A DNA stretch of 64,000 nucleotides, from assembly GCA_964106915.2 (NCBI GenBank), contig OZ066916.1; one strand, given 5' to 3'. The notes beneath the pieces are model-generated. The model was not told the DNA's origin, ran no database searches, and saw nothing but the letters and a program-made list of their open reading frames with translations. This document shows positions 19,201-22,200 of the stretch, piece after piece. Positions within the stretch are counted from its first letter, which is position 1. Every line of letters begins with the position of its first letter. The position numbers were made by a program, and so were the translations under genes. The DNA comes from Podarcis gaigeae (lineage: Eukaryota).

Positions 19201-22200
19201 GTCATCATGGTTTTCAGCTTAGGGCTAAACATGGGTTTCCCTTTCTAAAAATCTGAAGGCCACAGATTGGCGTGGATTTCAAATCCTGGTTTTAGAGTAA
19301 CCCTTGGTTAGCTTTCACCAGAGTCAACTTTGCTGAAGGTGAACTTGCAGTTTAGGAGGAGAGGGTATCAAGTGCTCCAAGAAAGGAAGTAAGGGCACAC
19401 GTTCCTGAGAAAGGCTTCCAGTTTGCTTACCACAGTTAGCGGCTACCCAGTGCCTTTGTTTGCACGCTGGCAGAAAGAAGTTGTATCAGGGTGAGGAGGT
19501 CTACTCATTTCTTTAAAAAGGTGGCCAGGGAAAGTGATCTGGAATGGTTTCTTAGGTTCCCTAGTTTGGTATGCAGGAGGCATCCAGAAAATAGGTATTG
19601 TGTTCTGCACTTTAATACCTGTGCAAAAAAAATAAAATTAAGCGGAGGTTCCAGGGTTTTTTGTCCAGTGAAGGAGCCTCTCAGGCGAATTTGCCTGCGA
19701 TTCTGCAAGGCCGCAAGCCATTGTCATCGTCGTAAACTGCAGCATCCAACCCGGCCTTTACCTTCTCTTTTCCCTTAACTCTTAATTGCAGAGACACTAT
19801 AATGATGAAGACCCTGAGAAAGAAAAACGAATAAAGGAATTAGAGTTGCTACTAATGTCGACTGAGAATGAACTGAAAGGGCAACAGGCATTACCAGTAA
19901 GAATGTCACTGTGTGCTTGGACGGAGGGATAGCAGCTTTACCCCAGTGCTTCTCTTCCCCCCCTTTTCCCCTCCCCCTCTTCTTCTGACACTAATCAAGG
20001 CTCTATATTTCCATTTGAAGAGGACGAGACATTGCTCTCCACCCCCCATAAGCATTTGCTTGTCTTCCCCCCCCCCATCTCCAAATTACAGTGGTGCACT
20101 AATTCCACCATGTTTGCTTTTATGTGAAAATGGACTGCTATTTAAAAAAAGAACAGCAACAATCAGTTCCCGTCAGGTTTTATCCTGAGGGGACATCTTT
20201 GTTTCTGAGAACTTCTGAACACTGTGCATAATGAAAATGTAGTGCCTGGTTCTTGGTTTTCTTCTCTTTCTCTCTGCGCTGTATTCCTCACCTTCAGCTA
20301 TATGTTGCACTCCTGGCCTGTGATCCTCAAGCCATTGCAGCCGGTCTTGCTCACTCTTTTCGGCAAATGTGGCACAAGTCAAGTCCAGAGTACGTCACAT
20401 ACCTCTGCTCTAAAGAGTGCTACTTGTATGTATTCAGAACCTCACCCCTGCTCCAAAGCTTGAAGTGGCTTCCCCTCCAGCTTGCAAAGTCAGTGAGCAA
20501 TGCTGCATGGAAGGGGGCAGGCAGGGTGTGTCTCTCTGCACTGGCCACACCACTGGGCCTGTCTCCTCCGTTCCAGAATGCCACAGAATCCTCCTCCCGG
20601 GGCCACTTGTGCCACATGCCCTGCAAGTTGGGAATACGTAGTCTTGAATTGGCGTTGGGAAGACAGGACAATTGCTCCAGACCAAATGGTTTGGGAATCA
20701 CAGCCCAAATAAGGTCCATTTTATTTGTTTTTATGCATGTTTGGTAATGTTTCTCTGAGGAAAGTTAGATTCTATAACTGCATGTATGAAACCCAGAGCT
20801 GGCTATTACTGAATTTGTATATGTAATAAAATTAATACGGTAACTGCAGAAAAAATAAAAACCTGGGTGATAGCCAGCAGGAAACATCCACGTCTAATTA
20901 ATTCATATTAATAATTAATTCATTTTCTAGTTAATGGGGGGGGGACACAACCGTGTGCATGAAATGTTAGTTTGGCCACTTCTAATTTTTAGTTGAAGTT
21001 TTGCAATGCCTTCTCTTGCATGGTTATGCTGCAAAGAGACTTCTGTTAATTTGCTCTTCTGCTTTCCTAACCGCGTTGATTTTACAGCCTTTTCATTGCA
21101 TTGGTGTAAGCTGTAGCACTAGTCAGAGATAGGGCAAAGATGAGGGGAGGTATATCAAAAATAAGTAACTGGTATTAATCTAAATCCGCAAAGACCAATG
21201 GAAAAGTTGCCAGTGACTTCAAACGTGATGTGGAATTCAAAATCTAAATCCATAAGGTACAGATAAGACCGAGTTTTGCACTAGGGAAATCTTGCAATTT
21301 CCTTACTTTGCACAGGGAAGGAAAAACAGATTTGTGCACTCACAGACTTTGGAAGAAGAGTGTTTGCATGTAGCTGTATTGCTTGTTATACTGTAGATAC
21401 TGGCCCAGGATGCAGAGTTGATGCACAAGATGAGGTAATGCCAAAATGAAAGCTATAAATTTATTACCCTTTCAAACAAGCTCTTGCTGCACTGATGAAA
21501 GGAAACATCTTGACAACTGTTTCATGGGCATTAAGTGCTTAGATGATGCAACTACTTTTATCTTTTCCTTCAACAGCCATCCAATACCTTGTGCAATTTC
21601 TTTGCTAAGTTCCTTCTGCCTCTTTTTTCTCACACCCTCTTTACCGCCCCCCCTCCCCCTTCCTTTAGACACAGAACCACACGTCAGATTACCCAGGATG
21701 GCACAGCACCGCAATTGCAGACAGTACCAGAACTAGTGGTAACAGTGCGCCCATTTCCTCTTTGGGGGAGCATCATCATTGTATTCCATCTCCACCAGTG
21801 GATCATGGCTGCTTGCCGGAAGAAAGTGCATCCCCTGCAAGGTGCATGATTGTTCACCAGAGTAACTTCCTGGATAATGTTAAGAATCTCTTAGAATTTG
21901 CGGAAACGCTTCAGCTGATAGATTCCGTAAGTAGAATGGTCATCTTCTAAGGTGTGGCTGGTATAAGGACTGGAGTCATATGCTATTTCTATATCAGTTT
22001 GTTTTCTTACATTCTGTCTGTCTTGTTTGCTTTGTTGCTGAATAATCCCATATCCAGGGTAAACTTTCACCATGACCACCTTTAGTACAGTTGGTTTTTG
22101 TTTTGTTTTTTGCTGCACATTTACAACTTACAACCCAGTCCTATGCAAGCTTACTTGGAAGTAAGTCTCGTTTAAATAGACGGGCTCTTATTTCTGAATA

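Follow-up and report, generated by a model that had tools for sequence, protein, structure and literature searches.

The MYB gene of the lizard Podarcis gaigeae carries, inside intron 8, an acceptor-like site followed by a long open frame. The question raised by this locus is whether the site opens a coding terminal exon, a poison cassette related to mammalian exon 8A, or an exon that is not used at all. The window is the whole stretch of DNA that was analysed, i.e., 64,000 nt of contig OZ066916.1 (GCA_964106915.2).

MYB gene structure in the window

The MYB gene of a lacertid lizard lies in the window. Its exons match lacertid Myb proteins at about 97-100%, with 100% for exon 9 against the Myb of Podarcis and Lacerta, and a 761-aa Podarcis isoform was placed exon by exon from 8755 to 35578. 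The exons on both sides of the candidate site are the following.

19790..19896, + strand, MYB exon 8 (second half of the LMSTEN transactivation motif), the upstream partner; start approximate
21669..21926, + strand, MYB exon 9, in which the shifted frame stops 181 nt in after either cassette

Exon 8 ends at 19896 with CCA/gtaaga. Intron 8 lies between 19896 and 21669 and includes the candidate site, which is thus in the same intron as mammalian exon 8A. The region 20240-20880 is single-copy, apart from one 44-nt match on another contig.

Other variable parts of the gene were observed in the window. Exon 8 is absent from the annotated 606-aa lacertid isoforms and from many bird isoforms, by which part of the LMSTEN motif is lost; a human form with exon 8 skipped, Del8, is listed in PMC3154906. 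Positions 23001-23360 hold an intact orthologue of the 120-codon alternative exon 9B, which is used in the 761-aa isoform, and the intron between exons 9B and 10 contains a second close AATAAA pair (24349-24373). Downstream of the stop codon, five matches to TTGGGAG, which we take to be the miR-150 seed match, were found at 35707-37123, and AATAAA occurs at 36950 and 37214.

Splice sites and open frame of the candidate exon

The features of the candidate exon are as follows. Organism A is a relative of this lizard that is described in the next section.

20243..20297, + strand, AG-free polypyrimidine tract and acceptor AG; organism A without difference over 20183-20314
20298..20389, + strand, likely exon 8A orthologue, short form, 92 nt; donor AGA/gtacgt; frameshifting
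20298..20425, + strand, likely exon 8A orthologue, long form, 128 nt; donor CTT/gtatgt; frameshifting; no listed difference in organism A
20426..20747, + strand, non-conserved remainder of the 149-codon frame, which contains the gtgagc donor after 20492

The sequence elements described by an earlier sequence-only reading were confirmed. The acceptor AG is present at 20296-20297, and the previous AG is at 20241, leaving 53 nt without AG, with pyrimidines at 33 of the 40 nt upstream. The frame is open from 20298 in phase 0 with exon 8 for 149 codons, with the stop ending at 20747, and AATAAA follows at 20825 and 20854. All donors placed by that reading, after 20389, 20425, and 20492, are located there. 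A TAAT at 20229 is a possible branch point for the acceptor.

An AG-free zone of at least 50 nt together with 75% pyrimidines was found at only three of the 783 intronic YAG sites of the gene, including 20297, and the values of this acceptor fall within the range of the true acceptors of the gene. Sites of acceptor-like form with AG-free zones of at least 50 nt also occur at 20577 and 16207, and neither is 8A-like. The 92- and 128-nt donors match the consensus modestly (5/9 and 6/9), and the true donors of the gene match at 5-7 positions. The gtatgt of the longer form also follows a true exon of MYB, at 26915. The donor after 20425 is equally plausible as the donor after 20389.

At least 149 open codons follow just one of the 783 intronic YAG sites, i.e., the 20297 acceptor. 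A single long intronic frame is nevertheless not extraordinary, because the minus strand of the window has stop-free runs of 195, 167, and 207 codons.

The long frame in related lizards

The locus was compared with sequencing runs of relatives over the stretch 20130-21000. No RNA holder of the locus was on record. Four of the 24 candidate runs (14 guessed to be RNA, six of unknown kind, and four raw RNA by species label) were examined. Run X1, guessed to be RNA, is from organism A, which is about 4% diverged downstream. Run X17 is from organism F; its kind is not on record, its coverage is even and DNA-like, and it gave no contig past 20351.

The sequence-only reading had proposed that the lizard makes a Myb of about 465 aa, and had named stops or frameshifts in close relatives among the findings that would refute it. 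Both kinds of damage were found. In organism A, a C>T change at 20478 makes a stop at codon 61, so that the frame is 60 codons long, and a loss of 8 nt at 20492-20501 removes the in-frame gtgagc donor as well; both changes were read from one contig at depth 5.4. In organism F, one allele has 4 nt inserted after 20321, which leaves 39 codons (depth 19.5 vs. 22.7 for the other allele). The stop of this allele, at 20413, is still premature. Organism F is polymorphic within both the polypyrimidine tract and the exon.

The 14 listed substitutions of organism A in the frame comprise nine replacements, one of them nonsense, and five silent changes, against a silent share of 29% expected by chance. 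These substitutions look neutral, and the frame did not show in the relatives the purifying selection of a protein-coding terminal exon. The 149-aa peptide had no Pfam match, shared no 6-mer with 225 stored Myb proteins, and found only itself in its own genome besides five hits at E 0.39-0.85. Nothing was found at E<=10 among 1,276 longer protein candidates, which is a weak test as isoforms can hide inside clusters.

A selected terminal exon encoding a functional new C-terminus is therefore hardly tenable. The frame is open and in phase in this genome, two AATAAA follow it, and its length is reached after no other intronic YAG site of the gene. Against this stand the codon 61 stop and the 8-nt loss in organism A, the 4-nt insertion allele in organism F, the near-chance share of silent changes, and the lack of Pfam or database relatives. 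Because of the frame breaks, the neutral-looking changes, and the lack of relatives, the 465-aa product is not considered a selected protein. It is largely refuted and survives only as a species-specific recent gain. The 149 codons would be a by-product of neutral intron sequence. An in-frame exon of 195 nt, ending at the donor after 20492, was rejected as well because this donor is lost in organism A.

Local conservation around the acceptor

The short exon showed a different pattern in organism A. No difference was found over 20183-20314 and none was listed over 20378-20431, whereas 20315-20377 lies outside the coverage. Listed differences amount to 0 over 186 nt of acceptor and exon and to 17 over the 424 nt that follow, of which 15 are substitutions and two are indels. 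This contrast, drawn from three shallow contigs of one run, has a Fisher p of 0.0025, or at worst of 0.03 with two unplaced letters scored unfavourably. The acceptor, the exon start, and the first two donors thus seem to be conserved, i.e., the short exon appears to be kept and not the long frame.

Probable homology to mammalian exon 8A

In human, the internal cassette exon 8A is located between exons 8 and 9 and carries a stop codon of its own (PMC3154906). Its product is given as residues 1-316 plus 34 (PMC3154906, section 5 and Table S3), and 8A was marked present in 13 of 13 leukaemia samples (Zhou et al. 2011, PMC3154906). A link of the lizard site to this exon, or to a poison exon, had been suggested from the sequence, and it gained support from the match at the exon start described here and from the conservation in organism A.

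Short Myb isoforms were searched for, which gave 21 proteins, and cluster members were then added. Of the stored proteins, 165 include the end of exon 8, and a tail of the 8A type follows it in six of these, i.e., gibbon, fruit bat, two bears, and two lemur forms. The gibbon protein P0147 (350 aa) has a 34-aa tail of this type. By our own reading, the published 22-nt human 8A probe encodes DIFSDWA, which lies inside the P0147 tail. No sauropsid isoform with an 8A-like tail was found among the 225 stored proteins.

The mammalian 8A tails begin with L..LL..D, and the candidate does likewise. This likeness was noticed by eye first and tested afterwards, by scoring back-translated mammalian tails from each of the 4,337 plus-strand AG sites. 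In the nine-codon scores, 20298 ranked 1 with the gibbon, 3 with the bat, 2 with the bear, and 21 with the lemur tail. With full tails and gaps, the ranks among the same sites were 13, 16, 22, and 989, respectively; for the full gibbon and bat tails, 20298 was the first of the 102 AG sites in intron 8. With a four-species profile, allowing for the choice of prefix length, 20298 was third of 4,337, and only 3 of 2,000 column-shuffled profiles did as well there. Four other acceptor-like sites ranked 388-2,824 under this profile. In the best alignments, the stop of the mammalian tails falls at 20393-20397, next to the donor that follows 20389.

Searches that were not anchored at AG sites did not single out the site. 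It scored 9.3 bits vs. 16-20 bits for chance matches elsewhere, and within intron 8 it was best in only two of three settings. With the 22-nt human 8A probe, the expected place was 25th of 174 tiles. The probes for 9A, 10A, and 9B had no convincing match; the best tiles in the matching introns were 22667-22716 for 9A and 25161-25210 for 10A, with scores within chance.

On the anchored scores, homology to mammalian 8A is credible at the exon start, over about the first 9-12 codons, and uncertain or weak beyond. The candidate has a phase-0 acceptor that would add new residues after residue 316, and its start resembles that of 8A. An in-exon stop after about 34 codons is absent, as the 92- and 128-nt forms are both open; such a stop arises only if the 128-nt donor is combined with the insertion allele of organism F.

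Predicted effect of the cassette on the MYB message

The exon behind the 20297 acceptor is probably the lizard orthologue of mammalian 8A, a cassette of 92 or 128 nt that would frameshift exon 9 and is predicted to trigger nonsense-mediated decay. Splicing would occur at a low rate, joining 19896 to 20298 and then 20389 or 20425 to 21669. Either length, 92 or 128 nt, puts exon 9 out of frame, and the shifted frame first stops 181 nt into this exon. From there, 77 nt remain to the end of the exon, and at least six further junctions follow. Decay is usually triggered where a premature stop precedes a junction by more than 50-55 nt. The stop in exon 9 exceeds this distance, and the message would be expected to enter nonsense-mediated decay, which would trim the Myb dose. 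A protein that escapes decay would have 406 or 418 aa and would retain the DNA-binding and LMSTEN domains without the Cmyb_C domain.

The premature stop is reached by several routes. The mammals stop inside the exon, the lemur 8A forms use another frame than the gibbon form, and the organism F allele stops at 20413. This would be expected if the event mattered and the peptide did not. Decay of the 8A message is not certain, since the major human MYB variants, 8A transcripts included, were reported on polysomes (PMC3154906).

No joints or loose ends were found at the 20298 acceptor or at its donors in the four runs, two of which, X4 (share 0.19) and X23 (12% of the run read), gave no sequence. 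In run X1, three contigs of depth 5-7 cross the acceptor and the three donors unspliced; the first is 152 nt long and ends in apparent adapter sequence, so that it may be one fragment. The sequence-only reading had proposed to look for a junction into 20298. None was seen, but this is a weak test, as one run is DNA-like and the other has a depth of 5-7. The stretch 20130-21000 lies within intron 8, so a junction would be visible only as a loose end, and contigs holding exon sequence may be left out by the mapping method.

The missing junction and the lack of a database isoform agree with an unused site, i.e., a decayed remnant of an ancestral exon or a chance acceptor-like tract that is never spliced at a meaningful rate in lizards. 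The confinement of the homology signal to the first 30 nt or so and the polymorphism of organism F in the tract and exon point in the same direction. An unused site is still unlikely: the acceptor is as strong as the true acceptors of the gene, the region is locally conserved in organism A, and the exon start matches mammalian 8A.

Possible intronic polyadenylation and read-through of exon 8

Two further features of intron 8 bear on a shorter transcript.

19897..19932, + strand, intron 8 start with a read-through peptide of 11 residues, nearly the VRLSLCAW of sauropsid isoforms
20783..20861, + strand, three UGUA, AATAAA at 20825 and 20854, and an A-run at 20850-20861; a possible intronic poly(A) or internal priming site

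If the exon 8 donor is read through, translation continues into the first feature. VRLSLCAW was found in 10 stored proteins (turtle, tuatara, bird, and unnamed), and P0217 (Logan, 221 aa, spanning several exons) ends in VRLSLCAWMEG. Mammalian exon 8 read-throughs have only VR in common with it. The segment 19897-19932 may be a conserved splicing element by exon 8, or may supply the stop codon of a form that retains the intron.

In run X1, the last contig stops at 20855, which is 25 nt past the first AATAAA, and coverage is zero from there to 21000. Three UGUA lie upstream of this end. AATAAA pairs within 40 nt number three among 46 plus-strand AATAAA. The end lies in one of the two intron 8 tracts with at least 10 A in 12 nt, and oligo-dT priming on genomic A-rich tracts is the usual internal priming artefact. 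The X1 end at 20855 fits either intronic polyadenylation or internal priming alike.

If polyadenylation takes place here, transcripts end near 20850, either by splicing into 20298 or by read-through of the exon 8 donor. In the spliced form, the length of the tail would be irrelevant, with products of 465 aa in this lizard, 376 aa in organism A, and 355 aa from the organism F allele; the read-through form would be 327 aa. Such products would escape decay and would be without the C-terminal regulatory region and the normal 3' UTR, and the cassette could coexist with them. The coverage stop, the three UGUA upstream, and the near identity of the read-through peptide to the 10 sauropsid proteins argue for this process. 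On the other side, the X1 end is in an A-rich tract, RNA ends are not visible in contigs, X1 is an RNA run by guess only and has a depth of 7, the raw-read run X23 contributed no reads, and no poly(A) loose end was listed. The first AATAAA also ends a 44-nt stretch whose 91% copy elsewhere lacks the hexamer. Intronic polyadenylation is on balance a rather doubtful account of the site.

The stretch concerned is 20788-20831, and its one 91% copy is on another chromosome (L002 1501-1543), with no Myb coding sequence nearby. A repeat origin of the poly(A) region was also considered, and one 44-nt copy was found elsewhere but no repeat family.

The cassette and the poly(A) region could also be branches of one amniote-wide switch, in which an ancient 8A acceptor leads either through a weak donor to decay and less Myb or to intronic polyadenylation near 20850. 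On the latter branch, a stable, C-terminally truncated Myb without the normal 3' UTR would be made, whatever its tail sequence. Such a switch is improbable.

Relation to known MYB variants

Human 8A and the lizard candidate are alike in that they lie in the same intron, have a phase-0 acceptor after residue 316, are similar over the first 9-11 codons, and lead to a premature stop upstream of the C-terminal domain. They differ in the position of the stop, which in human 8A is inside the exon after 34 codons, whereas the lizard exon is open and the stop arises by frameshift in exon 9. Splicing has been demonstrated for human 8A and is predicted for the lizard exon.

REM-422 and RGT-61159 act through inclusion of a MYB poison exon, and an unproductive MYB exon whose donor is GA/GU is induced by risdiplam (PMC13283465, PMC12375692, PMC11387194). 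In these cases, a normally skipped exon is included and MYB is lowered via nonsense-mediated decay. The donor of the 92-nt lizard form is of the same GA/GU form favoured by risdiplam. The passages on these compounds do not specify the induced exon, which may be 8A or another one.

A truncated product would resemble v-Myb and the human 9S/10 and 9A variants, in which the DNA-binding and activation domains are kept and the C-terminal region is lost. The 9S/10 form was demonstrated in chicken and mouse marrow (PMC3154906), whereas a truncated product at the lizard locus is only predicted. In the literature on MYB 8A, splice variants, intron 8 decay, and intronic polyadenylation, no report of a non-mammalian 8A was found, although subscription papers may hold one. 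Human 8A itself has been published.

So far, human 8A has counted among the many minor splice forms of MYB. If the lizard has the same exon and reaches the premature stop by a different route than the mammals, 8A would have been kept since the split of mammals and reptiles because of what it does to the message, and not because of the peptide. Exon 8A would then be an ancient means of controlling the dose of a master regulator of blood formation, in a gene whose poison exon is now a drug target.
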